The notes under the pieces were generated by a model that was not told the DNA's origin, searched no databases, and saw only the letters and a list, made by a program, of their open reading frames with translations. Source: a virus (taxonomy: Duplodnaviria > Heunggongvirae > Uroviricota > Caudoviricetes). From it: a DNA stretch of 64,000 nucleotides. Shown here one piece after another: positions 26,359 through 63,205 of the stretch. Location of the stretch: positions 1 to 64,000 of the IMG/VR virus record IMGVR_UViG_3300033146_004404, one strand, 5' to 3'. Positions within the stretch are counted from its first letter, which is position 1, and each line of letters opens with the position of its first letter. A program made the position numbers and the translations under genes.

Positions 26359-26460
26359 TTTTACTGAAAGTTAGTGTCGGGACGAGAGAGCACAGTAGTA
26401 TGAAAATACTTCCAAGCCTTCTCCCAGACTTTTTCTGTAGTCTTAAAAGAACAGTAACAT

Positions 26461-26534: not shown

Positions 26535-26674
26535 AAAGCTGAATTTTGAGTAAGGTCGCTACGAAGAACAACTCTAAAACAAAAACAAAAAGGAGAAGCT
26601 ATGAAATTCACATAGGTAAAACCGCCTTAACTGCTATATATAAATGAATAATTTATATATAGGAGAATGAAAAG

Positions 26675-27037: not shown

Positions 27038-27039
27038 AG

Positions 27040-27408: not shown

Positions 27409-27412
27409 ATTT

Positions 27413-27432
27413 TTGGCCCTTCGGGGCCTTTT
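27413..27432 (+). terminator. rho-independent terminator
   Basis: ggccc-ttcg-gggcc-tttt after the PTH2 gene. Confidence 0.65.
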
Positions 27433-27434
27433 AT

Positions 27435-27507
27435 GTGTCTGTCGTATAATGGCTATTACGATGCCTTCTAAAAGCACCAGATCAGGGTTCGAATCCCTGC
27501 AGACACG
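27435..27507 (+). tRNA. tRNA with CUA anticodon (candidate amber suppressor)
   Basis: Perfect acceptor gtgtctg/cagacac, T-arm caggg-ttcgaat-ccctg, anticodon loop ttCTAaa with U33 and A37. The anticodon stem has terminal A-C/C-A mismatches. Confidence 0.4.
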
Positions 27508-27544
27508 ATAGGGCAATGTTGTTCACCCTATAATATTATTTCTT

Positions 27545-27615
27545 GGCACAGTGAAATTGGTTTTCAAGCTAGGCTCATATCTTAGTTTCCGTGGGTTCGA
27601 TTCCCACCTGTGCTT
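27545..27615 (+). tRNA. tRNA with CAU anticodon
   Basis: Acceptor ggcacag/ctgtgct, anticodon stem ctagg/cttag with loop ctCATat, T-arm gtggg-ttcgatt-cccac. Atypical D-arm. Confidence 0.5.
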
Positions 27616-27617
27616 TT

Positions 27618-27689
27618 GCTGGGAGGGCGTTGGAGTCCCAGATCAGGTTCATAACCTGTTTCTTCGTCGGTTCGATTCCGTCCTCAGCT
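27618..27689 (+). tRNA. tRNA with CAU anticodon
   Basis: Acceptor gctggga/cctcagc, anticodon stem cagg/cctg with loop ttCATaa. T-arm carries a U-U mismatch. Confidence 0.45.
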
Positions 27690-27975
27690 ATAATGAGAAA
27701 ATCAAGTAACGAGAGAATTAACAGTGTAGCTTGGCTGTTCGACAGACCAAAATTCTCTCAGTTTTTTAAGAGGTATTTATGAAAGACACAAAAGTAACTA
27801 TGAGTAACTATGAATATTGATGAGTATAACAAATTAGTCAATATAATTGAAAAGACTTTAATATTTAAAGAGAATTTAAAGACTAAGCTTAAGGAAGCCA
27901 TTGTCTATAAAGAAAAAGAGATAAAATCAATGACTTTCTTTGAACTTATGAAAAGGTATCTAGCTAAATAAATCC

Positions 27976-28004
27976 TTGACAAAAAAAGAATAATATGGTA
28001 TAAT
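27976..28004 (+). promoter_or_regulatory. consensus early promoter copy 15
   Basis: Identical core; precedes 28023 and the Arg/Glu tRNAs. Confidence 0.75.
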
Positions 28005-28022
28005 TAAGTACAAGGAAGGGAA

Positions 28023-28220
28023 ATGATGGATTATGTGCAAGTAAGAGTTAAAAAAGAAGGTGCTGAAATTTATCAAATGGCTTGGGTCGAAAAGTTAAAA
28101 AGTGTCGTTGAGGGGTGTAAAATAACTATTGAGGATAATGGAGTTTTTTGGGAAGTGCTTAATTTATATACAGGAAAGCAAGTTCCAAAAGAAGATCTCT
28201 TAAAGGCTTTGGAATATTAA
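28023..28220 (+). CDS. small hypothetical protein
   Basis: Promoter copy 15 plus GGAAGGG RBS. Confidence 0.4.
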   Translation: MMDYVQVRVKKEGAEIYQMAWVEKLKSVVEGCKITIEDNGVFWEVLNLYTGKQVPKEDLLKALEY

Positions 28221-28228
28221 TAAAACAT

Positions 28229-28301
28229 GTACCGTTAGCGTATTGGATGACGCAACAGGCTTCTAACCTGTTAAAACTGGGTTCGATTCCCAGACGGTGC
28301 T
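28229..28301 (+). tRNA. tRNA-Arg (UCU)
   Basis: Acceptor gtaccgt/acggtgc, D-stem gcgt/acgc, anticodon stem acagg/cctgt with loop ctTCTaa, T-arm ctggg-ttcgatt-cccag. Confidence 0.8.
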
Positions 28302-28308
28302 TTTACTT

Positions 28309-28381
28309 GTCCCTGTCGTCTAATGGTTAGGACGCAAGTTTCTCAAACTTGTAATCTTAGGTTCAATTCCTAGTAGGGGTG
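28309..28381 (+). tRNA. tRNA, anticodon possibly CUC (Glu)
   Basis: D-stem cgtc/gacg, anticodon stem caagt/acttg with loop ttCTCaa, T-arm ttagg-ttcaatt-cctag. G-U-rich acceptor; boundaries approximate. Confidence 0.4.
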
Positions 28382-28404
28382 TCAATAAAACAAGGGGTTT
28401 AAAA

Positions 28405-28833
28405 ATGATCTTGAAAGAGTTAAAGAAACAGAAAATAATACTTAAGAAAACAAACCCAGTTAGATCTGGTGTTTTAGCGTCTCTTATAGCAGAGACTGAA
28501 AAAACAGCTAAAGTAGCTAAGAGAGAAGCTCTTCAGGAAGATGTTGAAAAAGCAGCAGCAATGCTTACAAAACAGTTACAGAAAACTGTTGATGAAGTTA
28601 AAGTTGGAGAAGTAGTTGAAGGCTATAAACTCGAGATTGCTGAGCTGAAAGATTTTATTCCAGAAACAGTAAATAGAGAGCTTACTACAGAAATGATCGA
28701 AGAAGTCTTAAAGGAATATCCTGAGCCTTCTATGAAGATTATGGGAAAGGTTATCAGTGAATTGAAGAAAAGATATGGTAATAAGATTGATATGGCGATT
28801 GCTTCGAAAGAAGTGAAAGCTCTATTGAGTTAA
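28405..28833 (+). CDS. YqeY / GatB C-terminal-domain-like protein
   Basis: C-terminal '...EEVLKEYPEPSMKIMGKVISELKKRYGNKIDMAIASKEVKALL' resembles the GatB_Yqey motif (E..P...MGKVMG.VM.K..G.ADG..V...V...L). Confidence 0.5.
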   Translation: MILKELKKQKIILKKTNPVRSGVLASLIAETEKTAKVAKREALQEDVEKAAAMLTKQLQKTVDEVKVGEVVEGYKLEIAELKDFIPETVNRELTTEMIEEVLKEYPEPSMKIMGKVISELKKRYGNKIDMAIASKEVKALLS

Positions 28834-28839
28834 AAATAT

Positions 28840-28913
28840 GCGCCTATAGCTCTAATGGTTAGAGCAGCTCCCTCATAAGGAGACGGTTCTTGGTTCGAGT
28901 CCAGGTGGGCGCA
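28840..28913 (+). tRNA. tRNA with CAU anticodon (Met/fMet/Ile2)
   Basis: Acceptor gcgccta/tgggcgc, D-arm tagctctaatggttagagc, anticodon loop ctCATaa, T-arm cttgg-ttcgagt-ccagg. Confidence 0.7.
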
Positions 28914-28986
28914 TTATCAAGTCAAGAGGTTTCACGAGTGAAAAAATATTTATACGGTTCCTAGCGATAGGAGGAAATATATTATA

Positions 28987-29523
28987 ATGAAATATTACTT
29001 AATGAAAAACAATGACAATCAGGATTTAAGAAAATTTGGCGATTGGTGGGAGCTGATCGCCTTTTTAGACTATAGATGTATTAAGTGCTTTGTTCACAAC
29101 CCTAATGATTCTTACGGAGGTTCTTACGTTTCTAAAAGAATAGGGTTGAAAGAATATGAGCATGTTTATCATGACTATGATGTTTATACTGTCTTTGATG
29201 GATTGATGAGAATTATCAACAAAGTAGAACTACAAGATGGGCTGAAGAAATTTAACCCTTCCTACGGAAGACAGGTAAGAGGAAGAAAACAAAAATATTT
29301 TAATTGGATGAGAAGCAAACGAGGATATCGTTATGCTAATCCAAAAAGAAGAGGAAAACGCTTCAGAATAGAAATGGATGAGGCGAGAAAAATGTTCCCA
29401 AATAAAGGAAGGTTAAATACTTTAGAAGTTGTTACCTCTTGGGGTGACGATTGGGGAACTATAGCTATAAGTAGAAGTTGGAAAGATCAAAGTAAAAAGA
29501 GGAAACAGTGGTTATCCTCATAA
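28987..29523 (+). CDS. hypothetical basic protein
   Basis: ORF with AGGAGGAAAT RBS; Arg/Lys-rich C-terminal half. Confidence 0.45.
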   Translation: MKYYLMKNNDNQDLRKFGDWWELIAFLDYRCIKCFVHNPNDSYGGSYVSKRIGLKEYEHVYHDYDVYTVFDGLMRIINKVELQDGLKKFNPSYGRQVRGRKQKYFNWMRSKRGYRYANPKRRGKRFRIEMDEARKMFPNKGRLNTLEVVTSWGDDWGTIAISRSWKDQSKKRKQWLSS

Positions 29524-29542
29524 TACTTTAAGGGGATAGTAT

Positions 29543-29640
29543 GTCAGTTTTTTTAATTATTTCAATGGCTGTTTTTGTCTGTGCTGTGATAATATATCAG
29601 TTTTTTTAATTATTTCAATGGCTGTTTTTGTCTATGCTAT
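29543..29640 (+). repeat. ~48-bp tandem duplication spanning the start of 29618
   Basis: tcagtttttttaattatttcaatggctgtttttgtctRtgct repeated twice, with two mismatches. Confidence 0.75.
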
Positions 29641-29830
29641 GATTGGGTTTATTACTTTCAAAATATTAAATGAGCATTTATTCATTTTTGATATAGACGA
29701 CTTTGACTGTTTTGTATCTGCGTTTTGGCCGGTTGGATGGTTTGGAATAGCTGCATATTATGCAGGAACAGCTATAGTTGATTTTGTAGAAGATAGGAAA
29801 AAAAATAAAAGAATAAAGTTTGCCCCTTAG
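29618..29830 (+). CDS. small membrane protein
   Basis: Two predicted TM helices; its start lies inside the second copy of a ~48-bp tandem duplication. Confidence 0.4.
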   Translation: MAVFVYAMIGFITFKILNEHLFIFDIDDFDCFVSAFWPVGWFGIAAYYAGTAIVDFVEDRKKNKRIKFAP

Positions 29831-29891
29831 TGTAATGGCTGCACAAAACACTCTGAATGTTTTAGTAGAGGTCCGAATCCTCTAGGGGTTT
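29821..29891 (+). tRNA. tRNA, anticodon probably CUG (Gln)
   Basis: Anticodon stem aaaca/tgttt with loop ctCTGaa, T-arm agagg-tccgaat-cctct, acceptor tgcccct/aggggtt (first pair mismatched). Overlaps the stop of the upstream ORF. Confidence 0.5.
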
Positions 29892-29933
29892 ACTGTAATC
29901 CATTAAGTCTTACATAAACAAAAAGGAATTAAG

Positions 29934-30887
29934 ATGCCACAAGCTGTAATTGTTTCAGGTAGAAGTAATAGACCTTTATCAAAAGATATTCTATTCAACT
30001 TAGGATTAAAGGGAAAAGAAATTCCCACTATTATAATGGATTTTCCCAACAAAGAAATATTTGTTAAGTACAAAGAAAGTATAAGAGGAAAAGACGTATT
30101 CATAATAAATACATTTAATGGTGATCCTAATAAGGATCTAGTAGAAACTTTAATTTTAGCTGATACAGCATTTACGTCATCAGCTAGAAGGATAACGGTT
30201 GTTCTTCCAATCATTTACGGTTCTAGGCAAGATAGAAAAAGTTCGCTTAGAACTCCTGTCACTATATCAATGATGGCTAAAATCTTCAAGTCAGTTGGTA
30301 TAGATCGCATCGTAACGGTTTCGTTACATGCACCACAATCAGCAGCAGCATTTTTTGCGGCTGGTTTACGCTTTGATAATATCTCTGGAAGTGGAATTTT
30401 TCTTTCAGATATGAAAGAGCTTATGAAGACAGAGAATTTTGTCGTCGTATCTCCTGACGCCGGTGGGCTTTCTAGGGCAAGATACTATGCTAAAGTATTA
30501 GATACTGACATAGCATTTGCTGATAAGAGACGAGGAGCTGACAGAAAATCTGAAATCATGAATCTTGTAGGTGACGTTAAAGGTAGAAATGTTTTTATTG
30601 TTGATGATATGATCGATGGCGGTGGAACAATTATTGGTGTAGCAAATGCCTTGAAAGCAGGTGGAGCAGAGAATGTTTATTGTCTTGCTACACATATGGT
30701 GCTTTCAGGTGATGCTGCTGAAAAGCTGAATAACTCAGTTATTAAAACAATTTATGGCAGTAACTCTATCATAAAAAACAGTCTTCCAAGCAAATTCAAA
30801 ATCAAAAGTCTTGGGCCAACACTTTCTAATGTAATAGAGAAAATTCATAATGATGAAAGCGTTGGTGATGCTTGCGAAGAGTTATAA
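29934..30887 (+). CDS. prs: ribose-phosphate pyrophosphokinase (PRPP synthetase)
   Basis: 'RGKDVFIINTFNGDPNKDLVETLILADTAFTSSARRITVVLPIIYGSRQDRK' and 'VVVSPDAGGLSRA' match Prs signature regions. Confidence 0.8.
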   Translation: MPQAVIVSGRSNRPLSKDILFNLGLKGKEIPTIIMDFPNKEIFVKYKESIRGKDVFIINTFNGDPNKDLVETLILADTAFTSSARRITVVLPIIYGSRQDRKSSLRTPVTISMMAKIFKSVGIDRIVTVSLHAPQSAAAFFAAGLRFDNISGSGIFLSDMKELMKTENFVVVSPDAGGLSRARYYAKVLDTDIAFADKRRGADRKSEIMNLVGDVKGRNVFIVDDMIDGGGTIIGVANALKAGGAENVYCLATHMVLSGDAAEKLNNSVIKTIYGSNSIIKNSLPSKFKIKSLGPTLSNVIEKIHNDESVGDACEEL

Positions 30888-30890
30888 TTT

Positions 30891-30919
30891 GACAAAAAAA
30901 GAATAATATGCTATAATTA
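30891..30919 (+). promoter_or_regulatory. consensus early promoter copy 16
   Basis: TTGACAaaaaaagaataatatgcTATAAT; precedes the Rnl2-like gene. Confidence 0.75.
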
Positions 30920-30936
30920 AGCATAAGGAGGAAAAA

Positions 30937-31890
30937 ATGGATTTTAAAAGATGGTGTTCAATAGAGAATCATTACCAGACGGCTACTTTCAATCGCTGGA
31001 TTACAAAGCATCCAGAGGTAAATGGTGCCTCCTACAAAGTTACAGAAAAAATTCATGGTGCTAATTTTTCCATTTTGACTTCTCCTGATGGAACTTTAAA
31101 ATTTGCTTCACGAAACAACATTCTTGAAGAGACAGATAAGTTTTATGGATACAAAGAGATCATGTCTAAGTATCAGGATATTATTGACTTCTTACTTAAA
31201 GAGTCAAAAACAATGGGAGAGGAACTTCAGCTATACGGAGAGGTCTTTGGTGGATCAATCCAGAAAGGCGTATTTTACGGAAAAGAAAAACAGTTTCGTT
31301 GGTACTCTTTAAGAGTTAATGGAACTGTAATTGCTCCAATGGAATCAACTCTTAAACTTCAGGAAATCGGAGAACATGAAGCTCCTGTAATTGGTATTTT
31401 TACAATTAAAAAAGATTTACTTGAATTGATTGAAAGAATCGACACAAAATTTAATTCTAAGCTTACTCCTGTTGGCTATGCTGATGAGAATCTTTGTGAA
31501 GGTGTTGTAATTGTTCCTTATGAAAGGAATTTTTACAATCAGAATTCACTTCTTTTAATCAAGAAGAAGAATAATGAGTTCATAGACAAGCAGCGTAAGC
31601 CAAAAGTAATTAAGTCCATTCCTGAAAATATTCAGAATGTGTTTGCTAATTACTCCTCATTTGTCTGTGAGGTACGTACAAACGATTTGTTTTCTAAAGT
31701 TGGAGAATTTACTGAAATGAAAGAGATTTCAAAATTCGCCAAAGCTTATTTCGAAGACGTTGCAGTTGATTACGAAAAAGAATTTTTGACTGAATGGGAA
31801 GAGCTTTCTAAGGCAGATAAGCAAGCAGTCAAGAAGATGATCGGAACAAGAATTTTTATTGAACTGAAAGAGAGTTTGTCAAGAGCTTAA
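30937..31890 (+). CDS. RNA ligase, Rnl2-family nucleotidyltransferase
   Basis: 'IENHYQ' and 'EKIHGANFS' match the T4 Rnl2 N-terminus and motif I (ENHYN...KIHGTNFS). Confidence 0.7.
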   Translation: MDFKRWCSIENHYQTATFNRWITKHPEVNGASYKVTEKIHGANFSILTSPDGTLKFASRNNILEETDKFYGYKEIMSKYQDIIDFLLKESKTMGEELQLYGEVFGGSIQKGVFYGKEKQFRWYSLRVNGTVIAPMESTLKLQEIGEHEAPVIGIFTIKKDLLELIERIDTKFNSKLTPVGYADENLCEGVVIVPYERNFYNQNSLLLIKKKNNEFIDKQRKPKVIKSIPENIQNVFANYSSFVCEVRTNDLFSKVGEFTEMKEISKFAKAYFEDVAVDYEKEFLTEWEELSKADKQAVKKMIGTRIFIELKESLSRA

Positions 31891-31896
31891 TTTTCA

Positions 31897-31936
31897 GAGG
31901 TGAAGGAATATTGCTGGTTCGACTCCAGCCACCTCT
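31897..31936 (+). other. tRNA-like minihelix (acceptor stem plus T-arm only)
   Basis: gaggtg-(10 nt)-ctgg-ttcgact-ccag-ccacctc; no D or anticodon arm. Confidence 0.35.
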
Positions 31937-31937
31937 T

Positions 31938-31983
31938 TAGACATTAACAGCACAAAAAGCGTGGAAGCAAAAAAATATGTCTA
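31938..31983 (+). ncRNA. conserved inter-tRNA hairpin element (copy)
   Basis: TAGACATTAACAGCAcaaaa...ATGTCTAG. Confidence 0.4.
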
Positions 31984-31996
31984 GCCCCTTACGTTT

Positions 31997-32068
31997 CGTC
32001 CGTTAGAAAAATGGTTAATTCGTCAGCTTGCAACCCTGAAGGTGTGGGTTCGATTCCCACACGGATGT
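31997..32068 (+). tRNA. tRNA, anticodon probably GCA (Cys)
   Basis: Acceptor cgtccgt/acggatg, anticodon stem tcag/ctga with loop ttGCAac, T-arm gtggg-ttcgatt-cccac. Confidence 0.5.
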
Positions 32069-32320
32069 TTAAAATAAAATAAAAGGAAAGGACAGAAAGA
32101 ACTGGCTGATAGAAAATTTATTAACATTGAAGGAGTAAAATATTTTTTCGAGACAACTCTTACTGATGATAGTCCTGCTATTGGAATAGCTTACTTGAGA
32201 TCTAGTGATATAACTAGACTTAAAACGAGAAATTCAAAGAAAGCACTTGAAGAGACTTATGGCACACTAAGAAAATATAGTATAATGTTATAGTGTCATA
32301 TATACTCTAAGGAGTATATA

Positions 32321-32521
32321 ATGGTATTTATTGATGATGACATTAAGATCGAAAAAACAGAATACAATGGGCAGACTTATGTTTCAATCAGGAAGTGGTA
32401 TAAAGATAGAACTTCCGGAGAATCTAAGCCTTCTAAAAATGGTATAAATATGTCGATGGAAGCTTGGGAAGAGTTCACAAGTAAAATTAATGAGATAAAG
32501 GAAGATATTGAATTTTCATAA
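32321..32521 (+). CDS. small hypothetical protein
   Basis: ORF with AAGGAG RBS. Confidence 0.4.
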   Translation: MVFIDDDIKIEKTEYNGQTYVSIRKWYKDRTSGESKPSKNGINMSMEAWEEFTSKINEIKEDIEFS

Positions 32522-32522
32522 G

Positions 32523-32807
32523 GGGGCTGTAAAAGGTTTCGACTGGATGGTAAAGTTTGATCGGTGTTTTAAATTTTTATAGTTGACGAAACAGAAACTT
32601 ATTACGCACAGGTTGCGTAACTGACTCTTGCTTCATTTGTTCCTTCCGTGAAGTAAGAGAGAAAGGAAGGATAGTCTGTTTGTTATTCTCTGACGATAAA
32701 CAAGTAATAACAAGAGGTTTTATTATTGATGATTTCCTTTTAAAAAACAATCTTTCAACAGATCAAAATAGTCATACAGGACGAGGGTCCGATTCCCTCC
32801 AGCTCCA
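32523..32807 (+). ncRNA. ssrA: tmRNA (SsrA), CCA not encoded
   Basis: 5' 'ggggctgtaaaaggtttcgactgg' parallels E. coli ssrA 'ggggctgattctggattcgacggg'. 3' 'caggacgagggtccgattccctccagctcca' parallels 'cggacgcgggttcaactcccgccagctcca'. Acceptor has G3:U70. Internal 'ttatagtt|GAC GAA ACA GAA ACT TAT TAC GCA CAG GTT GCG TAA' gives tag (A)DETETYYAQVA, analogous to 'aatagtc|GCA...ANDENYALAA'. Terminator at 32851-32885. Confidence 0.7.
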
Positions 32808-32850
32808 TTTAGTTTTTTGTTGGTGTAGAGGTTCATGACACAAACCCTGA

Positions 32851-32885
32851 GCCGACAAGAATTTATTCTTGTCGGCTCTTTTTTT
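32851..32885 (+). terminator. rho-independent terminator after tmRNA
   Basis: gagccgacaag-aatttatt-cttgtcggctc-ttttttttt. Confidence 0.75.
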
Positions 32886-32914
32886 TTGACAAAAAAAGAA
32901 TAATATGGTATAAT
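32886..32914 (+). promoter_or_regulatory. consensus early promoter copy 17
   Basis: Identical core; precedes 32916/32934. Confidence 0.75.
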
Positions 32915-32915
32915 T

Positions 32916-33218
32916 ATGTATAGGGAAGAAAAAATGAATAAAACAAAAGAGATATGGGAAAATTTTGTAGGCTCTCAGGCTTATGACTTTATTGCAGAAA
33001 TAATTATTTTGCTAATGAAAGTTTCATTAGTTTATCTCGGCTTAATGTTTTTAGTTGGTGTTTTCTTAGGTATATTAACATCTAGTTTGACAGTGTTCTT
33101 TATGTTCGCAAATGTGTTTACATTTGTATTTGGATCTACCTCATCTTTTTTAATAATTATTTCAAGAATATTTGCATTAGTAATAGCTTCTAGCTATGCT
33201 TTAGGAGCTTTCAGTTGA
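32916..33218 (+). CDS. membrane protein
   Basis: Multi-TM hydrophobic ORF downstream of promoter copy 17; the start may be ATG 32934. Confidence 0.4.
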   Translation: MYREEKMNKTKEIWENFVGSQAYDFIAEIIILLMKVSLVYLGLMFLVGVFLGILTSSLTVFFMFANVFTFVFGSTSSFLIIISRIFALVIASSYALGAFS

Positions 33219-33291
33219 AATACAGAAGAGGTTATGTAAAAAGAAACAGCTTACAATAGAATACGTATAATGATTAAGTTTTTTGGGGGAA

Positions 33292-34374
33292 ATGATGGAA
33301 GCGAAAATTTTTGAAACAAAGGATGTTAAAATCCTAAGAGCTGAAGGGTATAACTTTAACTTTGATAAAAATACAGGATATTTTGAAAGGTGGGGAAAAA
33401 CTCAGGAAGATGATCCGGACTACTCTAAGTTTGGCCCTGAAATTCTCGACCTTGAAATCAGTTCATCTGTAAGACCTGAAGAAAAACATCTTTATGATGA
33501 AACTCGTTTAGTTAATGACGGTGGATGCTTGGGTCGATGTGCGTTTTGTTATAAGTCAAATGGAGAACATCCAACTTATAATATGACTCTCGAAGAGTTC
33601 AAAAAAATCTTTCACGCAATGCCCAAAACAATGGGGCAGATTGCATTCGGAATTTTGAATATTTATTCAAATCCAGATTTTTTCCCTATGATGGAATACG
33701 CCAAAAAAAACGGTGTAGTTCCAAATTATACATGTCACGGTTTTGATGTTGATGAAGAGACAGCAAAGAGAACTGCTGAACTTTGTGGCGCAGTAGCTGT
33801 TTCTATTTATTCAAAGACAGCTTCCTACAACGCAATAAAATCATTCACTGATGCAGGAATGGATCAGGTTAATATTCATTATATGATCGCTGAAGAAACC
33901 TTTGATAAAGTTTTTCAGATTATCGATGATATGAAATCCGATAAGAGACTTGCTAAGATGAATGCAATCGTTTTCCTATCTCTTAAAACAAAAGGTGGAG
34001 GTGAAGACTTTCATAAACTGTCAGATGAGAAATACAAAATTCTTGTTGACTATGCTCTTGAAAAAGGAGTAAGATTCGGCTTTGATAGCTGCGGCGCTCA
34101 TAAATTTTTGAATGCCATAAAGGATCATCCAAACTACAAGCAGTTTGAAGAGATGGCAGAGCCTTGTGAAAGTTCTTGTTTCAGTTCTTACATCAACTGC
34201 CTCGGAGAATATTTTCCTTGTTCTTTTACTGAAGGGCATAAACTGTTCCCTGACGGATTAGATGTTTTAAGTACTGAAAACTTTGCTGAGGAAATCTGGA
34301 ACAGTGATGCAGCAAAAGCTTTTCGGTACAAGCTTTTAAAGAATGAAAGGCGGTGCCCGCTTTATGACGTATAG
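33292..34374 (+). CDS. radical SAM enzyme with N-terminal extension and C-terminal Cys cluster (SPASM/twitch-like)
   Basis: 'GGCLGRCAFCYKS' CX3CX2C about 85 residues from the N-terminus; C-terminal 'CESSCFSSYINCLGEYFPCSF' extra Cys motif. GGGGGA RBS then ATG 33292. Confidence 0.6.
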   Translation: MMEAKIFETKDVKILRAEGYNFNFDKNTGYFERWGKTQEDDPDYSKFGPEILDLEISSSVRPEEKHLYDETRLVNDGGCLGRCAFCYKSNGEHPTYNMTLEEFKKIFHAMPKTMGQIAFGILNIYSNPDFFPMMEYAKKNGVVPNYTCHGFDVDEETAKRTAELCGAVAVSIYSKTASYNAIKSFTDAGMDQVNIHYMIAEETFDKVFQIIDDMKSDKRLAKMNAIVFLSLKTKGGGEDFHKLSDEKYKILVDYALEKGVRFGFDSCGAHKFLNAIKDHPNYKQFEEMAEPCESSCFSSYINCLGEYFPCSFTEGHKLFPDGLDVLSTENFAEEIWNSDAAKAFRYKLLKNERRCPLYDV

Positions 34375-34603
34375 AACTAGAGAATACACACAGGGAGAGA
34401 AAGGATTCTTAATTGGATTTTCTCTCGGCCTCTTTATTTTTTGCTGCCTTGGGTTTATGCTTACAGTTCCAATAACAGCTCATTACAAAAGTGGATATAT
34501 GGATGGGCAACTTGATTATCAAAAAGGGAATATAAAATATATTCTTACAGAGAAAGGTTTTACGGAGATTAATAATGAAAAAAAGAATAGGATTTGTAAG
34601 TAA
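34343..34603 (+). CDS. small membrane protein
   Basis: ORF overlapping the rSAM 3' end, with one TM helix; start uncertain (34343 or 34364). Confidence 0.35.
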   Translation: MKGGARFMTYRTREYTQGEKGFLIGFSLGLFIFCCLGFMLTVPITAHYKSGYMDGQLDYQKGNIKYILTEKGFTEINNEKKNRICK

Positions 34604-34967
34604 CAGTTCTTCAAGCTCATTTGTGATAGTAATAGATGAAACTATCGTTGAAAAAGTAGAAGAGAATCTCTCCCCTCTCAGTAAAGCAATCTTTGATAGA
34701 ATCAAGAAAACGAAATACTCATTCACATCTGTGGATTGGATAGATGGAGAATATGGTGACTTATTTGACGGTGAAGTAAAAGATGTCATTGAAGGCGACA
34801 TCACATTCAAGGCAGATCTTGATAAAGCTATTACTGAGTCAGATCGTGAAGACTTTCAAGACTGGGAATATCTTAGCGAAGTACAAAATACTTTTTCAAA
34901 AGAGCTCTTTGCTGCCTTGAAACAAGAAGATAAATGCTTTTATATCATAAGCAAAACTAATATGTAA
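34575..34967 (+). CDS. tandem paralog 1 with conserved N-terminus MKKRIGFVSNSSSSSF
   Basis: Shares an identical 16-aa N-terminus with the next three genes. Followed by 'VIVIDE', then a divergent acidic body. Confidence 0.6.
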   Translation: MKKRIGFVSNSSSSSFVIVIDETIVEKVEENLSPLSKAIFDRIKKTKYSFTSVDWIDGEYGDLFDGEVKDVIEGDITFKADLDKAITESDREDFQDWEYLSEVQNTFSKELFAALKQEDKCFYIISKTNM

Positions 34968-34977
34968 AGGAGAATAA

Positions 34978-43033: not shown

Positions 43034-44566
43034 GTGGATTACGTAGAAGAAAAAAACAAAGAAATCATTAAGGGATTGGTCAAAAACCACTTCAGTCTTA
43101 ATGAGAAAAGTCTAAAAAGATTTTGTAAGGAATATGACAATAAATTTATTGATCCTATTTATGAAAAACTTGGACTTGATGAAAATTTAAGAGTTTATAA
43201 AAAAATTGATAACTGTGACTTTTTTAGACAATTTGACAAGTCTTATGATTTATTCAAAAGTGATTTTGAAGAGGCTCTCAATATTATGTTTGAAGATGGA
43301 TTTGATGATGTTTATGAGTATTCAGCGTTTATAGACAATAAGATAACTAACAAGAAAAAGAAGTCTACAAACAAGCTCTTTAAAGCACTTAAAAAAGTCT
43401 ATAGAGAAAACTTTAATCTACAATGGGATTTAGTACATTCCCATTGTAGATTACTTTCGCCTTTTGCCAGTTACAGTGAAGAAGATAAAAAAAGGCTTGT
43501 AAAAGATCAGTTTGACAGAGTTTTTGATAGAGAAGTAGAGAAAATTGGTGAGTTTAAATTTCCGAAAGGTGAAATGTACGCAGTTTTAAGTATGAACTTT
43601 AATGACTGGTTTATGAATGCAACTGCTGAAAGTTGGTCTTCATGTCTCAATATGGAAAGTGCATGGGAAGGTGCTTATTGGGCAAACGTTCCTGGAATGA
43701 TTGTTGACGATAACAGGGCAATGTTTTATATAACAGACAAAAAAAGAAAAAAATATCATGGAATAGAGACTGACAGATTTATAATAAGATCATGGGCATC
43801 ATTAACTCTTAACGACACAGTTGTTTTGAATAAATCTTATCCAAACAAGATATTTGCAAAAGATTTATTCTCTAAGGCTTTTAACTCCAGAACAGAAGAT
43901 TTTAGAGACGGATGGGAATCAAAACATTCAATAAATTTCTTGACAAACGTGAATGGATTTTCTGTATTTATTTATCTTGATTCTAGTAGGCTTTTTCTTG
44001 ATTCTGATAGTTGTGAATGGAAGATAGCTGGTGGAAAAATGGATAACTCTTACGAGATTATAAATTCAGAAGGTGTACTTCAAGAAAGCGAAGGATTTTA
44101 CAACTACGAAAACGGTTTATCAAGACTTATCAGTAGCGGAATGAAAATTCATGAAGTTTCTACAGATGAGATTAAGTGTGAGAACTGCGGATGTATCATC
44201 CATCGTGATGATGCTCTTTCCGATCCAGATGAATGTCTTTTATGCGAATTCTGTTATGGCGACTTAGTTACCATCTGTCATTCATGCGGTAGTGCTATTT
44301 GGGAAACGGAGTCGAGTTATGCTGATGGAGAACAGTATTGTAACTCTTGCTTTGAAGATAACTTTTTAAAGTGTGAAGAATGTGGAGACACTATAGAAAT
44401 AGATGCTTCTTATTGTACCCCAAGCGGACATAGTGTTTGCGAATCTTGTTTTGATTCAAAATATAGCATATGCGTAGAATGCAGCGATCCCTTTGAGCAC
44501 AGTGAATTAAACGAAAACAACGAATGTGAAGACTGCGCAGTACAAACTTTAAGGGAGGCAACATGA
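43034..44566 (+). CDS. Cys-rich zinc-ribbon-array protein (paralog A)
   Basis: GTG start after AAGGAGCGCAC. Shares an N-terminal domain with 46177-47580 (the '...SWSSCLNME...' region); the C-terminal 130 aa carries at least 8 CxxC pairs. Confidence 0.5.
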   Translation: MDYVEEKNKEIIKGLVKNHFSLNEKSLKRFCKEYDNKFIDPIYEKLGLDENLRVYKKIDNCDFFRQFDKSYDLFKSDFEEALNIMFEDGFDDVYEYSAFIDNKITNKKKKSTNKLFKALKKVYRENFNLQWDLVHSHCRLLSPFASYSEEDKKRLVKDQFDRVFDREVEKIGEFKFPKGEMYAVLSMNFNDWFMNATAESWSSCLNMESAWEGAYWANVPGMIVDDNRAMFYITDKKRKKYHGIETDRFIIRSWASLTLNDTVVLNKSYPNKIFAKDLFSKAFNSRTEDFRDGWESKHSINFLTNVNGFSVFIYLDSSRLFLDSDSCEWKIAGGKMDNSYEIINSEGVLQESEGFYNYENGLSRLISSGMKIHEVSTDEIKCENCGCIIHRDDALSDPDECLLCEFCYGDLVTICHSCGSAIWETESSYADGEQYCNSCFEDNFLKCEECGDTIEIDASYCTPSGHSVCESCFDSKYSICVECSDPFEHSELNENNECEDCAVQTLREAT

Positions 44567-46176: not shown

Positions 46177-47580
46177 ATGATTTTAAAAGATGAATATAAC
46201 TACGTTCAAATAAAAACATTGGTAGAGAATCACTTCGCTCTTGATTCAAACAGTCTTGAAATATTCAACTCAAGACTTCAGAACAAAAACTATATGGATC
46301 AAACTATTCTTGACTTCTTTAAAGGCTCTGATGACGGGAGAGTTTACATAAAAATTAGTAAAGAAGAAGAAGAAAAGAATGGGATAAGTTGGAAAAGATT
46401 TAGAGATGCTGTCCCTGAAAACTTCAAGAAGAAATTTAACCTTAAATACTCAAATTATATTTCAGGAAAAGTTGTCTATAAAAAAAATGAACTTAAGATA
46501 GCTAAAGCTTTAAGAATATATTTTGATGAGTTAAGAGATAAAGATGAAGAAAAGTTTATAATAGAATATACAGTCTTTTATCAAGCATCTAAGGGCGCTG
46601 AGAATTGTTCTTGGAGTTCAAGTAGAAACTTGGACGTTAGAAATAGAATTGGCTCATTATATAAGAATATGTCATATGCCTTAGAAAGGTTTTCAGCTAA
46701 CAAAACTAAAGGTGGAGATGTAGATCTATATGCTGTTCTCAGTATAAACTTCGCAGACTGGTTCTTATGTTCAACTGGAGAAAATTGGTCTTCTTGTCTT
46801 AATATGAATAATGAATATTCTTACTGGACAGGACTTCCTGGATTGCTTGGTGATCCAAATAGAGTTATGATATATATAACTGCAAAAGAAAAAAAGACGT
46901 TTCATGGGATAACAGTAGATAAAGTTCTATCTAGAACTTGGGCAGAACTCGACGCAAAGGATATGTTTCACCACTTAAGATGGTATCCTTCAAAGCTCTT
47001 TAATAACGACATGGTAAAAAAAGCATTGAATATTAACTTCCCTAAGTATAGAGAACATGAGTGGAGATCAAAGAATCCTATTGAACCTATCTTTAATGAG
47101 AGAAAACAAACGTTATTTCCATTTCAAGATTTAAGCATGTTTGATTCGAACTATCCATATAATGAAATATATGTAACTGGAAATGATGAAGGCGGGTTCT
47201 ATTATTACGACTTGGAAGAATATTCAACTTTTAATTATTTAGGTGATGAAAATGAACTTTATAACCTGACTGGACTTGGCGCCTTAATTTGCTCTAATTC
47301 CAGTGTTATAGAATATTGTGAAGATGTTTATAAATGTTCTGAATGTTCTGATACCTATCACTTTTTAGAGAATATGCACGAGCATGAAGGAAGTTTTTAT
47401 TGTGGCTATTGCTACGATTCTATATTTACTACATGCTCTGAATGTGGAAAAACTATAGAGTCAAGATTCTCGTGTTATCTAAATAATTCTGACGATCCTT
47501 TATGCGATGACTGTTTTGAAGAAATTCAAGCAGAAAGGGCAGAAGCAGAAGCAGAAGCAGAAGCAGAAGAAGCGGTATAA
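46177..47580 (+). CDS. Cys-rich zinc-ribbon protein (paralog B) with C-terminal (EA)n tail
   Basis: Paralogous to 43034-44566; C-terminal CxxC array; ends 'QAERAEAEAEAEAEEAV'. Confidence 0.5.
   Translation: MILKDEYNYVQIKTLVENHFALDSNSLEIFNSRLQNKNYMDQTILDFFKGSDDGRVYIKISKEEEEKNGISWKRFRDAVPENFKKKFNLKYSNYISGKVVYKKNELKIAKALRIYFDELRDKDEEKFIIEYTVFYQASKGAENCSWSSSRNLDVRNRIGSLYKNMSYALERFSANKTKGGDVDLYAVLSINFADWFLCSTGENWSSCLNMNNEYSYWTGLPGLLGDPNRVMIYITAKEKKTFHGITVDKVLSRTWAELDAKDMFHHLRWYPSKLFNNDMVKKALNINFPKYREHEWRSKNPIEPIFNERKQTLFPFQDLSMFDSNYPYNEIYVTGNDEGGFYYYDLEEYSTFNYLGDENELYNLTGLGALICSNSSVIEYCEDVYKCSECSDTYHFLENMHEHEGSFYCGYCYDSIFTTCSECGKTIESRFSCYLNNSDDPLCDDCFEEIQAERAEAEAEAEAEEAV
47537..47575 (+). repeat. 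GCAGAA hexanucleotide repeat encoding a C-terminal (AE)n tail
   Basis: gcagaagcagaagcagaagcagaagcagaagaagcg at the 3' end of 46177-47580. Confidence 0.8.
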
Positions 47581-58441: not shown

Positions 58442-59224
58442 ATGGCGGATAAATTTACGTACGAACAAACAGATTGGAAAGTTCCGATAGAACAATCCTT
58501 ATTAACAAATACAGAAATCGACAATGGCTCATTAAGATTATATTTAATTTTATTGAGTTATGCTAGAAATAAAATCACAGCATTTCCATCAAGAGATACA
58601 TTAGCAAAAGATATGGGGTGTAGCGTTAGAAATGTTGATATTTTAAAGAACAAATTAAAAGCACATGGCTTATTATCTTGGGAAACAAAATTTTACGGAC
58701 AGAAGAAGCACAACACTTATACATTACTAAAGTATAAACCAATAACTTCTTCATATAAAGAGAAAAAAAGTTCTTCTCCACAGAGAAAGAAACTTCTCAT
58801 TAATAATACAAATAGTAATAATAAAACTACTAGTAGTGATTTTAAAAAAGTAATTAAGAGTTTCATGAAATCATACAGAGATACTTGTGAGAACATTGAT
58901 CCTGATATAAAGAGAAACATACAGTCAGGATGGATTAACAATAAAAATTACATAGTAACTAATGGTGACAGGAAAAACTTAGCACAGTATCTTCAGGAAA
59001 ACGGTGAAGATGGAATTGAGAAAATTGACATCAGTTTTAAATTTCTTAAATCTTATCTTGAAGATAGACTGGAGTATGGACAGTTTTATAACAGTGATGG
59101 TTCAGAATTAATTCCATCCATCAGCTTATTTCTTAAGTCAAAGATACAACATGATGCAATGATGGAATTTACAAAGCACAGATTAAGAGTAATAACAAAA
59201 GAGCTAGAAAGAGATGAAAGTTGA
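58442..59224 (+). CDS. winged-helix DNA-binding protein (replication-initiator / DnaD-like?)
   Basis: N-terminal 'LRLYLILLSYARNKITAFPSRDTLAKDMGCSVRNV' HTH-like segment. Confidence 0.35.
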   Translation: MADKFTYEQTDWKVPIEQSLLTNTEIDNGSLRLYLILLSYARNKITAFPSRDTLAKDMGCSVRNVDILKNKLKAHGLLSWETKFYGQKKHNTYTLLKYKPITSSYKEKKSSSPQRKKLLINNTNSNNKTTSSDFKKVIKSFMKSYRDTCENIDPDIKRNIQSGWINNKNYIVTNGDRKNLAQYLQENGEDGIEKIDISFKFLKSYLEDRLEYGQFYNSDGSELIPSISLFLKSKIQHDAMMEFTKHRLRVITKELERDES

Positions 59225-59255
59225 TAGTGGAATAATTTAGATATACAGAGCCAGA

Positions 59256-59621
59256 ATGGAAAGCAAGGGAGAAGGTAAGTTGAAAGAGTTTAAGATAATA
59301 AATAACGTACTTAATTACAGAAAAAATGGAGAAAATTGGATTCCATTTTCTATTGAAGAGTTATCTACAATTTTAGCGGATAAAGTTGTAAGCCAGCAAA
59401 TGATAAACGAGGCTTACTTAGAATCCGTTAAAAAACTTTTAGTTCCTTTAGTGAATTCCATATCACAACCTACTGATATGAGATATGACTTAGCTAAGTC
59501 GGTACTGAGTGAATTAATAACAAAGCAAGACAAAGATAGTGTTTACAGCACTATCGAACATTCTTTTGAATATGCTGATGCTTTTATAAAAAAATACAAA
59601 AGAGAAAACAAAAACATGTAG
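59256..59621 (+). CDS. hypothetical protein
   Basis: ORF. Confidence 0.45.
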   Translation: MESKGEGKLKEFKIINNVLNYRKNGENWIPFSIEELSTILADKVVSQQMINEAYLESVKKLLVPLVNSISQPTDMRYDLAKSVLSELITKQDKDSVYSTIEHSFEYADAFIKKYKRENKNM

Positions 59622-59658
59622 TTAATGGCTTTATCAACAATGTTATAAGGGAGAGTTA

Positions 59659-61398
59659 ATGAGAGAAATGAAAAAAAATTTTTTAGACAAAGGCTGGGTT
59701 TGCTTAGTTGATAAAATGGGAGACGACTATAGAATTTTACAGTCAGCAAGAGTTTCTACAGGTGGAGAAGCTTCAAAGGGAGATAAAGCAGATAGAGGAT
59801 TGATTCGATATTTGTATAAAAATAAACATTGCTATGACGATAAAACAGAGATTATGACAGAAAAAGGATTTATTTTATTTAAAGAGTTGAAAGATGAAAA
59901 AGTGGCCACTTTTTCAACAGACTCTTCAAAGTTTTTAAGGTATGAAACACCAAAAGAAAAAATAATTGATAACTACAGCGGAGAAATGTATCATTTTGAC
60001 GGAGATGTTGATTTATGCGTATCTCCAAACCATAAAATTTATTTTAGGAAAGCAAGAGATAAGAAATCAACATATCATTTTGATTTTGCTGCAGGAGAGG
60101 ATTCTTACAATAACCCTAAGAAGATAAAGAATGCTGAAGCACACATAAAAATGAAAAAATCTTCTTCTGGGAGTATTGTTAACTTTAAAGAAAGAGAAAT
60201 GTTTGGAATGGACATAATAAACTTTTCAAAGATTATAGGGTTTTTCATTGGAGAAGGGAACTCTAATTCAAAAAACACTATTGGGTTTCATCTAAAGAAA
60301 AAAAGAAAAATAAAATTTTTAAAAGATATAACGCTAAACTCTAATGTTGAATTAAGAAAATTAAAGAATGATGTTTATATATTTGATTTTCTTAATATAA
60401 AAGAATGGATTGATGAAAACTGCTATGATGAAAATAGAAATAAAAAGATTCCAGAGTTTTATTTCTATGAAAGCAGCATGGTTATTGATGCTCTCTTTGA
60501 AGGATTAAGGAATTCAAATGGATCTAACAAAAGAAGCACTTGGATATATTCTACAACCTCAAAAAAATTAGCTAATCAGTTACAAGCTATAGGTTCCATA
60601 AATGGAAGAACTATAACGCTAAATAGTTCAAGTGATTATTTATATATATTAAATTTTTCCACAAGAAGAGTTGAGGCAAATGTGAATGATAGTAGAGGAG
60701 GAAGTAATTTAAACATTATAAACTATACTGGAAATATATATTCAGTTACAGTTTCTACAGGTTTAATTATGGTTAGAAGAAATAGAAAAATAGTTCTTTC
60801 TGGAAATTCAACACCTTTCGAACAAGTAGTGTTTACGTTTCATTGTAAGATACCAAACTTTGTGGCAACTCATCTTTTACGTCATAGAACTTTTTCATTT
60901 AATATGATTTCACAGAGATATAGTCAAATTAAAGATGATTACTATATCCCTAAAGAGTGGAGAGCTCAGGGAATAACTAATCACCAAGGAAGCGGAGAGA
61001 AATTCGAAAGCGATGAAAACATTCGTTTGCAGAATGAATACGTTAACGAAATAGAAAATTCGTTTTTAAACTATAATGAAATGATAGAAACAAAAGTAGC
61101 AAAAGAAATGGCTAGATTGGTTCTACCTTCTTCAGTATATACAGAGTTATATTTTACTGTAGATTATCGAAATCTTTTACATTTTCTTGAATTAAGACTT
61201 CACGAACATGCGCAATTTGAGACAAGGGTTTTTGCTGAAGCAATAGAGTCTATATTAAATGAAATAGATGGATTAAAATGGTCAATGGAAATCTTCAAAG
61301 AAGACACAGAGCTTCAGTGGAAGATTCAAAAACTTCTTTCCTCAAAGAAAGAACCGGCAACAATACTAAAAGCTCTTGAAGAAGCTTTTGGAATATAG
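59659..61398 (+). CDS. thyX: flavin-dependent thymidylate synthase ThyX, interrupted by an intein
   Basis: Exteins: 'DKGWVCLVDKMGDDYRILQSARVS...RGLIRYLYKNKH' and 'STPFEQVVFTFHCKIPNFVATHLLRHRTFSFNMISQRYS' (ThyX RHRx7S motif). Between KH and STPFEQ lies an insert of about 326 aa starting with Cys and ending in Asn. Confidence 0.8.
   Translation: MREMKKNFLDKGWVCLVDKMGDDYRILQSARVSTGGEASKGDKADRGLIRYLYKNKHCYDDKTEIMTEKGFILFKELKDEKVATFSTDSSKFLRYETPKEKIIDNYSGEMYHFDGDVDLCVSPNHKIYFRKARDKKSTYHFDFAAGEDSYNNPKKIKNAEAHIKMKKSSSGSIVNFKEREMFGMDIINFSKIIGFFIGEGNSNSKNTIGFHLKKKRKIKFLKDITLNSNVELRKLKNDVYIFDFLNIKEWIDENCYDENRNKKIPEFYFYESSMVIDALFEGLRNSNGSNKRSTWIYSTTSKKLANQLQAIGSINGRTITLNSSSDYLYILNFSTRRVEANVNDSRGGSNLNIINYTGNIYSVTVSTGLIMVRRNRKIVLSGNSTPFEQVVFTFHCKIPNFVATHLLRHRTFSFNMISQRYSQIKDDYYIPKEWRAQGITNHQGSGEKFESDENIRLQNEYVNEIENSFLNYNEMIETKVAKEMARLVLPSSVYTELYFTVDYRNLLHFLELRLHEHAQFETRVFAEAIESILNEIDGLKWSMEIFKEDTELQWKIQKLLSSKKEPATILKALEEAFGI
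59830..60807 (+). mobile_element. intein with LAGLIDADG homing-endonuclease domain inside thyX
   Basis: Begins 'CYDDKTEIMT' and ends '...VLSGN' before +1 Ser. Internal 'KIIGFFIGEGNS' and 'IDALFEGLRNSNGS' LAGLIDADG-like motifs. Confidence 0.65.
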
Positions 61399-61563
61399 GA
61401 GAAAATTATGTCAGCAACGGAATTAGCGTTTATTTTAATAATGGGCGGAACAGCTTTTTACTTGATGAACAGGTGGTGGTAGATGATAAGTGTTGGCTCA
61501 GCAATCACTGCAATTATTTTTTCTTTTATAGTTGCTTGGGTAATTTTAAAGATCTTTAAAAAT

Positions 61564-61592
61564 TTGACAAAAAAAGAATAATATGGTATAAT
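61564..61592 (+). promoter_or_regulatory. consensus early promoter copy 26
   Basis: Identical core; precedes the metallopeptidase-vWA gene. Confidence 0.75.
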
Positions 61593-61612
61593 TAAGATAG
61601 AAAGGGGAGAAA

Positions 61613-63205
61613 ATGTCAAGACCAGAAACAATATCAAAACTGTCTTTCTATCTTATGGATAAAGAACCATTAATTTATCTTTTTATAATCAACTCAGATT
61701 TCATCTATGCTAAAGATGAAGAGATTGGTGGACTGGCAGGAGTGACATACAAAGATGGAAGAGTTCAATTCTATTACGGAGATATGTTTATAAATCTTCC
61801 TATAGAAGAACTTTACTTTGTATTAATACATGAAGCTCAACATATATTTAAGAATCATATAAAAATGTATAAAGAACACAAGAATAAAAAAATTCTCAAC
61901 ATAGCTCAAGATGCTATTATCAATAATGAAATAATAGCAACCAAATTTCTTGGTATCGAACCAAAAATGCCTTCGCTTGGAGGTAGTGTGATACCAGATA
62001 AATTTAAAAGAGATTACTCATCAATGGGAGAAGATGCTTATACGTCTGCCAGATTATATAACTGGTATTTAGAGAAAAAAGAAGAACTGAGTAAACTGTC
62101 TAAAAAAGAATTCCTGTTAAAAGTAAAATCTTGTAAGAACACAGTAACAGGAGAATACGGATTAGTATTAAGTGATTCAATAGATCCTGACAAATTAGAG
62201 ATTGGAGTCTTTGATTCTAAAAAAGAAATGCTTGATTCAAGGCATCAATGGAGATACAGACGATCTGAATTAACTCATATAGATGATTTAATGCCAGTAA
62301 TATCAAGAGGAGGTGAAGAAGGTGCTAGTGAAGCAGCAGAGCCAGATTTTGAAGTCGAGATTGATGATCCATTCGATTCAATCGTTAAAGAAGAAGGTGG
62401 AGAAGAAGAAATAATACCTCAGCAGATATTCATAGAGAACATCGTTAAACAAGCAGTTGAAATGGAAGATAATAACGAGGCTTTAAAGCAGGCAAAACTA
62501 ACGGCTGGAATTGGTTCTGAGAACAGCTTGATAGATGCAGTAAAGAAAATACTTGTATCTCAAATTAACTGGAAGAAAGAGTTTAAACAAAAACTAAATC
62601 TTTATATGTCAGATAGAGGTTCTGTAAAAGGGACTAAGAAAAGCTATATTACCTATATGTTAAATCCAAGAAGTCGGTACGGCATAATAGGAAAACATGA
62701 CTTAAAAACAACTATAAAGAAACAGAATTATTTAATTATGGCTGTTGATACATCAGGCTCTTGCTTCTATGACAACTTCGACAAAGAAAGGTTCTTTACA
62801 GAGATTGATGAAATAGCAAGAGAAATGAAATTTAGTGGAACTGGTAAAGTATTTATTTTAATGTGGGATGGATATGTTTCATCTAATGATATAGTTGAAT
62901 ATAATGTAGGTGACTGGAAAAATTTCAAGTTGACAGGAGGAGGTGGAACAAACCCTCATTCTGTTTTTGATTATCTAGAAAGAAGATTAGACGGAAATGT
63001 TCTTAAACTAAATGACAAGGAAAGCATTTATATTGAAAGCCTGACAAAGCTTCCGTTCTTACTATTCTTAACTGACGGATGGTTCTTCTTTAAATTGGAA
63101 AAAAAATCAACTGGGATATATCAAAAGGACTTGGAGAGCTTAATGTTTATGACAAGAGAAGAAAGATATATTGATGAATCAATAAGTAGGGTTATATATA
63201 AGTGA
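61613..63205 (+). CDS. metallopeptidase-like (HExxH) plus vWA domain protein
   Basis: 'VLIHEAQHIF' near the N-terminus and 'LIMAVDTSGSCF' MIDAS motif in the C-terminal half. Confidence 0.55.
   Translation: MSRPETISKLSFYLMDKEPLIYLFIINSDFIYAKDEEIGGLAGVTYKDGRVQFYYGDMFINLPIEELYFVLIHEAQHIFKNHIKMYKEHKNKKILNIAQDAIINNEIIATKFLGIEPKMPSLGGSVIPDKFKRDYSSMGEDAYTSARLYNWYLEKKEELSKLSKKEFLLKVKSCKNTVTGEYGLVLSDSIDPDKLEIGVFDSKKEMLDSRHQWRYRRSELTHIDDLMPVISRGGEEGASEAAEPDFEVEIDDPFDSIVKEEGGEEEIIPQQIFIENIVKQAVEMEDNNEALKQAKLTAGIGSENSLIDAVKKILVSQINWKKEFKQKLNLYMSDRGSVKGTKKSYITYMLNPRSRYGIIGKHDLKTTIKKQNYLIMAVDTSGSCFYDNFDKERFFTEIDEIAREMKFSGTGKVFILMWDGYVSSNDIVEYNVGDWKNFKLTGGGGTNPHSVFDYLERRLDGNVLKLNDKESIYIESLTKLPFLLFLTDGWFFFKLEKKSTGIYQKDLESLMFMTREERYIDESISRVIYK

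Follow-up and report, generated by a model that had tools for sequence, protein, structure and literature searches.

The window, by which we mean the whole 64,000-nucleotide stretch analysed here (positions 1 to 64,000 of IMG/VR record IMGVR_UViG_3300033146_004404), belongs to an uncultured, AT-rich T4-like myovirus (33.5% GC) and carries a gene for the thymidylate synthase ThyX whose coding sequence is interrupted in frame. An earlier reading made from the letters alone, the sequence-only reading, had proposed that a roughly 326-residue insert in this gene is an intein with a LAGLIDADG homing endonuclease. Our analysis bears out every part of that proposal, with some qualifications. The locus is laid out as follows, all on the plus strand:

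59659-61398 (+): ThyX precursor open reading frame (ORF), 579 aa, ATG start, TAG stop
59659-59829 (+): ThyX N-extein, aa 1-57, with the C-terminal end ...LIRYLYKNKH; matched by ThyX structures
59830-60807 (+): intein, 326 aa, precursor residues 58-383, Cys1 to Asn326; from profile, fold and homologues
59830-60054 (+): splicing (Hint) subdomain, N-terminal part; block A is CYDDKTEIMT and block B is VSPNH (B:7 Ser65, B:10 His68)
60193-60669 (+): LAGLIDADG homing-endonuclease domain, intein aa ~122-280; from profile and fold matches
60229-60264 (+): LAGLIDADG motif 1, KIIGFFIGEGNS, intein residues 134-145, catalytic acid Glu142 present
60484-60525 (+): LAGLIDADG motif 2, IDALFEGLRNSNGS, intein residues 219-232, Asn230 (AAT, 60517-60519) in place of the catalytic Asp
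60703-60807 (+): splicing subdomain, C-terminal part; block F is NIYSVTVSTG (F:4 Ser305) and block G is VRRNRKIVLSGN
60808-61398 (+): ThyX C-extein and TAG stop, aa 384-579, starting with Ser+1: STPFEQVVFTFH...

The reading frame was found as described, and a Shine-Dalgarno-like GGGAGAG lies 5 nt 5' of its ATG. The product matched Pfam Thy1 (PF02511; E 5e-45, 154 bits against a cut-off of 24.8) and NCBIfam TIGR02170 thyX (E 8e-46, 156 bits against a cut-off of 87.9). Because of these scores, we regard the family, and with it the ThyX identity of the host protein, as secure. In a search of solved structures, the N-extein corresponded to ThyX N-terminal residues 9-58 of 6j61, a Thermus ThyX, and to residues 12-65 of 1kq4, while the C-extein corresponded to residues 58-213 of 6j61 (E 5e-33). 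Query residues 8-58 fall on chain residues 9-58 and query residues 384-542 on chain residues 58-213, so that both halves abut to the residue, with the 57/384 junction at chain residue 58. This is in good agreement with the earlier claim that the exteins are contiguous in homologues, as is the T. maritima protein, which reads ...HGHETPFEHIVFTFH... across the junction, as had been quoted. Additionally, the C-extein harbors the ThyX motif RHRxxSxxxxSxRY in the form RHRTFSFNMISQRYS.

Joining the exteins in silico yields a ThyX of 253 aa. Its ten best matches without an intein (243-300 aa) are 64-69% identical to it and cover 96-99% of it, and it lines up from one terminus to the other with ThyX proteins of 243-267 aa at up to 69% identity. 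Its best 120 database matches are all intein-free (120/120, 215-317 aa), and the C-extein shares 56-68% identity with ThyX proteins that lack an intein. The alignment with intein-less ThyX that had been suggested as a check thus comes out in favour of an interrupted gene. About 100 extein columns are invariant in comparison with eight intein-free relatives, among them the ThyX motif RHRTFSxN..SQRYS. By calculation, the precursor has a mass of 67.5 kDa, the intein one of 37.7 kDa and spliced ThyX one of 29.8 kDa; for the last, ~29 kDa had been expected. The profile of PHROG 85 ('thymidylate synthase') spans the insert, residues 54-537 aligning with profile positions 85-576 of 866, which we read as a sign that intein-bearing ThyX proteins are contained in that profile. 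A blastn search of positions 59000-62000 against 50,697 phage records gave zero matches, and the 579-aa protein had no exact-sequence match on record.

We then compared the insert with other sequences. Searching with it recovered eight metagenomic ThyX proteins (P0001-P0008) with a homologous insert, 27-36% identical at 100% coverage (E 5e-44 to 8e-25). Together with gp22 of Corynephage P1201 and four Gaiellales genes, these make 13 other genes with homologous inteins at the same ThyX motif, in line with the view that the insert occupies a conserved site. The same element was also found inside a T4-type prohead protease (P0009), where it has a canonical ...THN/C end (here and below, a slash marks a splice junction) and matches Pfam Intein_splicing at 1.4e-9. 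The clade further extends to NrdD-like proteins, NAMPT (Staphylococcus phages), a nucleotidyltransferase (mycobacteriophages) and Lak phage genes. Scanning IMG/VR with the insert gave 16 pattern matches, 0 of them confirmed, and hmmsearch of the six-frame ORFs found no second copy of the intein within the window. The insert has a GC content of 27.7% versus 32.6% for the exteins, and 21% versus 23% at third codon positions.

A profile built from an alignment of nine inserts was searched against solved structures. Positions 6-81, which cover blocks A to B, matched the AceL NrdHF-1-1 intein (6zgq, E 2.5e-7), and positions 124-286 matched the endonuclease domain of PI-PkoII (2cw7; whole-sequence E 1.1e-10, 8.9e-8 for the stretch). 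The profile also matched the Thermococcus (Tli) V-ATPase/VMA intein (E 9e-6) and PI-SceI (E 0.01), and Pfam LAGLIDADG_3 was found in 8/9 family members (best E 2.3e-9). In the single-sequence search of the same structures, the insert gave a weak match to the AceL NrdHF-1-1 intein (5e-4). The beta-propeller and peptidase matches that appeared in its single-sequence scans were set aside as spurious, sub-threshold noise.

Modelling pointed the same way. The AF2 model of the insert has a mean predicted local distance difference test (pLDDT) score of 73.6 and a predicted template-modelling score of 0.73, with confident termini and endonuclease core. The beta strands of the N-terminal Hint part are predicted with a pLDDT of ~90, and further strands are predicted across intein residues 294-325. 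When the model was compared with the Protein Data Bank by Foldseek, the top 16 matches were all intein-endonucleases (PI-SceI, Tli/Pho VMA, PI-PkoII and PI-PfuI; E 5e-12 to 1e-8, TM score ~0.5), followed at ~1e-5 by the free-standing monomeric enzymes I-DmoI, I-SceI and I-Tsp061I. A Hint fold is thus indicated by the profile match over blocks A-B and the full-model matches to inteins, and a pseudo-dimeric alpha/beta fold with two LAGLIDADG helices by the profile match to PI-PkoII and the Foldseek matches to I-DmoI, I-SceI and I-Tsp061I.

The residues required for splicing are those of a class 1 intein. The insert (978 nt) opens on a TGC codon for Cys and closes on AAT for Asn, the next codon being TCA for Ser. 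These are the residues named by the sequence-only reading, and removal of the insert restores a contiguous host protein. We tabulated the catalytic positions across 22 clade members, the window copy included. Cys1 (precursor Cys58, TGC at 59830-59832) is invariant in 22/22, as are the block B histidine His68 at B:10 and the C-terminal asparagine at G:7. Every member has Ser, Thr or Cys at +1; in the window this residue is Ser384, and the junction reads ...LSGN/STPFE. The C-terminal splicing block is kept in all homologues, with R316, R317 and N326 invariant. The penultimate histidine at G:6 is replaced by Gly325. Roughly 5% of functional inteins lack this histidine (PMC4031507). Gly occupies G:6 in 21/22 members, the one exception being P0009 with His, and the hosts of these members range from ThyX and NrdD-like reductases to unannotated Lak phage proteins. 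By this comparison, the missing histidine is a trait of the clade rather than a lesion. The invariant Arg-Arg pair of block G is a candidate substitute for the histidine at G:6 or F:13 in asparagine cyclisation. The commonest residue at F:4 of inteins is Asp, followed by Cys (PMC4031507), and the F:4 Cys of the relatives prompted us to consider a class 3 mechanism. This was rejected: Cys1 is present and the Trp(B:12)-Cys(F:4)-Thr(G:5) signature is missing, the window having Ile at B:12 (Ile, Leu, Met or Val elsewhere) and Ser at both F:4 and G:5. Overall, family profile, fold and junction chemistry support the identification of the insert as an intein with a LAGLIDADG homing endonuclease, and from the intact nucleophiles and the conserved exteins we infer that it splices.

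The endonuclease itself appears to be in a poorer state. Both LAGLIDADG-like motifs of the sequence-only reading are present and align with the PI-PkoII helices, but the catalytic acid of motif 2 is an asparagine. Motif 1, aligned with liGffigdG of the family and LLGYYVSEGY of PI-PkoII, keeps Glu142. In motif 2, the position aligned with GDGD of PI-PkoII is Asp in 20/22 clade members, Asn230 in the window and Tyr in P0006, so that only the first motif of the window copy ends in a catalytic acid. Each LAGLIDADG motif contributes one catalytic residue, and in monomeric enzymes one strand is cut per domain (PMC3017599). Because of this, the window endonuclease is most likely inactive, or a nickase at best.

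Taken together, we consider it highly probable that a class 1 intein with a two-motif LAGLIDADG endonuclease interrupts ThyX in a 67.5-kDa precursor, and that the endonuclease of this copy is crippled. Once the precursor has been translated, the Hint domain would assemble from its two halves and Cys1 would undergo an N-to-S acyl shift. Attack of Ser+1 (Ser384) on the thioester would then give a branched ester, cyclisation of Asn326 would release the 37.7-kDa intein, and an O-to-N shift would leave the intact 253-aa, 29.8-kDa ThyX. Asparagine cyclisation would have to proceed without the usual penultimate histidine, because the clade as a whole ends in Gly-Asn. As DNA, the intein belongs to a mobile lineage homing into intein-free thyX alleles and into further genes of phages and cells, such as NrdD and NAMPT. 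The window copy has probably left the mobile phase of this homing cycle behind, and would then be kept only because imprecise loss would destroy ThyX.

Several observations weigh against this reading. The insert alone stays below threshold in Pfam (LAGLIDADG_3 at E 0.031) and reaches no Pfam or NCBIfam intein threshold in single-sequence scans. The profile search that had been proposed as a check therefore fails for the insert on its own and succeeds with the family profile, which matches solved inteins; a single-sequence profile search is nearly blind here, and a family profile or fold comparison is needed. The model has a pLDDT below 50 at intein residues 73-122 and 281-291. The loss of endonuclease activity is read from one substitution, and an asparagine can still weakly ligate metal. 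Lastly, three changes set the window copy apart: B:7 is Ser65 in the window alone and Thr in 21/21 others, F:4 is Ser in the window alone (Cys in 19 and Asp in 2 of the 22), and RRNRK replaces the RRNGK of nearly all ThyX-borne homologues. Along with the penultimate glycine, these changes could slow or abolish splicing.

If they abolished it, the insert would be a splicing-dead relic, that is, a decayed intein in a non-functional or tolerated ThyX fusion, the phage relying on host synthesis of deoxythymidine monophosphate. The already degenerate endonuclease motif would suit such decay. However, all three nucleophiles and the B:10 histidine are intact, the B:7 Thr-to-Ser change is by its nature a conservative variant, and the glycine at G:6 is shared by nearly all members in many hosts. 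Furthermore, the 1737-nt ORF has stayed open despite the AT-rich DNA, and the invariant ThyX columns, RHR...SQRY included, together with the extein identity are the pattern expected from purifying selection on spliced ThyX. We therefore judge a relic improbable.

Less probable again is a conditional or regulatory intein, in which splicing would be gated by, e.g., redox, temperature or nucleotide state and ThyX switched on post-translationally during infection. Insertion beside the conserved His and S/TPFE active-site motif does guarantee an inactive precursor, and in 19/22 members Cys1 and the F:4 Cys could form a regulatory disulfide. In the window, however, F:4 is Ser and this candidate switch is missing, neither sequence nor context carries a sign of regulation, and insertion at conserved sites is a general rule for selfish inteins (PMC5050341). 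Finally, it is hardly credible that the insert is a chimera created by the assembly, or that a free-standing homing-endonuclease gene or a group I intron is being read in frame by chance: phage thymidylate synthase genes are classic homes of introns and free-standing endonuclease genes, and a GIY-YIG gene abuts thyX in a relative, but the insert is in frame and stop-free, has Hint blocks A/B and F/G on either side of the endonuclease domain, lies in a window with no Rfam intron family and recurs with the same architecture, independently, in 13 other thyX genes.

In ThyX, the intein separates a conserved histidine (T. maritima His53) from the S/T-P-F-E motif, at a site where H57, P60, F61 and E62 are invariant among homologues. 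From this invariance and the structures of ThyX, we take the site to be flavin/substrate-binding, as the sequence-only reading had it; a search of the open literature found no paper giving the function of His53 in T. maritima ThyX. Aligning the spliced exteins of 14 intein-bearing and 9 intein-free ThyX proteins revealed two registers one codon apart. This comparison of window positions 59830-60807 covers P0001-P0008, L001 and L006-L009. The window, P0002 and P0006 share the register H/[ST][TS]PFE, and the 11 others, P1201 and the Gaiellales genes among them, have Hx/[TS]PFE, which places the window intein one codon upstream. In the register of the window, the +1 position is Met, Leu or Phe in 8/9 intein-free ThyX proteins and Ser only in P0013. 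The +1 Ser must thus, on this alignment, have been co-introduced with the intein or have been there before it. Invasion in this register would have gone through co-conversion or an earlier change of the extein residue next to the active site. We suggest, tentatively and at less than even odds, that the intein slid to a neighbouring nucleophile and reshaped the host motif, with a clade-wide asparagine cyclisation that uses a histidine neither at G:6 nor at F:13.

An intein-free counterpart of the locus was found on a syntenic metagenomic contig (L004/L005), which encodes a gp13-like protein, M23, AAA_5 and HTH_36 proteins, an intein-free thyX and a 541-aa protein. The window likewise encodes a family M23 peptidase, an AAA_5 ATPase and an HTH_36 protein, in addition to a Gp23-type major capsid protein, a tail sheath protein that is at most 35% identical to any of the 50,697 phage records, a DUF2201 protein and an RtcB ligase. 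The L004 thyX is identical to that of the window at 51/60 nt around the insertion point and at 69% over the whole gene, and this raised identity would suit a homing target. The empty site reads ...TATAAAAATAAACAT/TCAACACCTTTCGAA..., and the empty site of L004 is a candidate target for site-specific cleavage. In L004 (ENA ERZ27316312 k141_64111), a GIY-YIG/NUMOD homing-endonuclease gene at 5306-6004 overlaps the start of the intein-free thyX by 4 nt. Its positional counterpart in the window, 59256-59621, is an unrelated 121-aa ORFan with no Pfam or PHROG match. Judging from these gene contents, two different selfish elements target thyX in sister phages.

Directly 3' of thyX, two tiny hydrophobic ORFs follow on the plus strand, 61409-61483 (MSATELAFILIMGGTAFYLMNRWW) and 61484-61582 (MISVGSAITAIIFSFIVAWVILKIFKNLTKKE), which may encode small membrane peptides; the AGGAG ribosome-binding site of the first overlaps the thyX stop codon. 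The window also contains a large transfer RNA (tRNA) island at 23049-41579. Among its ~21 phage tRNAs is an amber suppressor with anticodon CUA at 27434-27508 (+), labelled 'Pyl' by ARAGORN and scoring 51 bits as an Rfam tRNA. We considered whether recoding of TAG alters the end of the thyX ORF. Genome-wide recoding is not evident in the window, where TAG ends 6/43 long ORFs, thyX included, and read-through would add 1-27 aa. At thyX, recoding was ruled out by these figures and also by the ribosome-binding site and the new small ORF after the stop. The tRNA callers differ in places: an ARAGORN 'tRNA-???' with a 2-nt anticodon at 24160-24235 (+) is not called by Rfam, and the Rfam tRNAs at 26461-26534 and 23141-23199 (+) are missed by ARAGORN. 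A transfer-messenger RNA lies within the island at 32523-32810 (+; Rfam RF00023, 72.9 bits, E 2e-26; ARAGORN tag DETETYYAQVA). The RtcB RNA ligase gene (20563-21855, +; Pfam 6e-55) lies ~1.2 kb upstream of the island, a position that suggests tRNA repair against host anticodon nucleases. Elsewhere in the window, the ORFs 43034-44566 (+) and 46177-47580 (+) are paralogues of ~470-510 aa with Cys-rich (CxxC) C-termini and the motif ...YAVLS(M/I)NF(N/A)DWF...W(S)SCLNM...; a Pfam scan of ORF 43034-44566 gave no match.

The main value of these results lies in annotation: rather than as an extended or fused thymidylate synthase, the 579-aa product should be recorded as an intein-bearing ThyX precursor, whose mature enzyme has 253 aa. 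An AT-rich uncultured T4-like phage is thereby added to the hosts of a widespread Gly-Asn-ending intein clade of phages and cells. The compact (326 aa), natural Cys1/Ser+1 intein with its natural Asp-to-Asn endonuclease variant could interest intein engineers. The one-codon register shift is a small new detail, the Gly-Asn terminus and the Asp-to-Asn motif are likewise minor points, and the ThyX intein opens no new biological question.

Indeed, ThyX inteins at this site are already on record, and the window intein adds a new and somewhat degenerate member to a known lineage. Its nearest relatives are the metagenomic and Gaiellales ThyX inteins (P0001-P0008 and L006-L009), which interrupt the same motif and have an SGN or CGN terminus, but whose exteins belong to other ThyX subfamilies. 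One of the closest described systems is gp22 of Corynebacterium phage P1201 (DQ499600.1), annotated as 'putative thymidylate synthase ... contains hypothetical intein', whose translation reads ...RQKHH/CYSSDTEVLT...VRRNGKPVWSGN/SVLEHTSF.... Its intein is homologous to that of the window (26% identity over 326 residues, tblastn 8e-14); it interrupts a phage ThyX at the same His and S-T-P-F-E motif, and it has Cys1, a block B TPNH and two LAGLIDADG motifs. However, it is inserted one codon downstream (KHH/SVLEH versus KH/STPFE in the window), and it keeps the motif-2 Asp, the B:7 Thr and the F:4 Cys where the window has Asn, Ser and Ser. P1201 is an actinophage, and host phage and exteins are unrelated to those of the window.

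Other ThyX inteins resemble that of the window by description. The Ter ThyX intein of Trichodesmium erythraeum, reportedly the subject of a 2004 paper by Liu and Yang (J Bacteriol 186:6316), is likened to it by description alone, as an intein in a ThyX host gene. This intein splices in Escherichia coli, to ~100% as a mini-intein (PMC3620165). Two ThyX-like ('TdS') proteins of mycobacteriophage cluster C1 carry inteins as well (Kelley et al. 2016, PMC5050341). The C1 inteins share with the window intein a phage host, nucleotide-metabolism enzymes and active-site motifs, the TdS inteins again by description alone, and those of the C1 nucleotidyltransferase, which sit in another host protein, are distantly related to the window intein (21% identity, 2e-6). 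The intein of the 'thymidylate synthase' of Acinetobacter phage B9 was rejected as allelic, being located at another site of a divergent ThyX-like protein. Finally, PI-PkoII, PI-SceI and the Tli/Pho VMA inteins have the same architecture, a Hint domain split by a monomeric double-LAGLIDADG endonuclease. They are only 9-13% identical to the window intein and, unlike it, combine a histidine at the penultimate position with two catalytic acids. At 326 aa, the window intein is also smaller than the chains of PI-SceI (454 residues) and PI-PkoII (537 residues).

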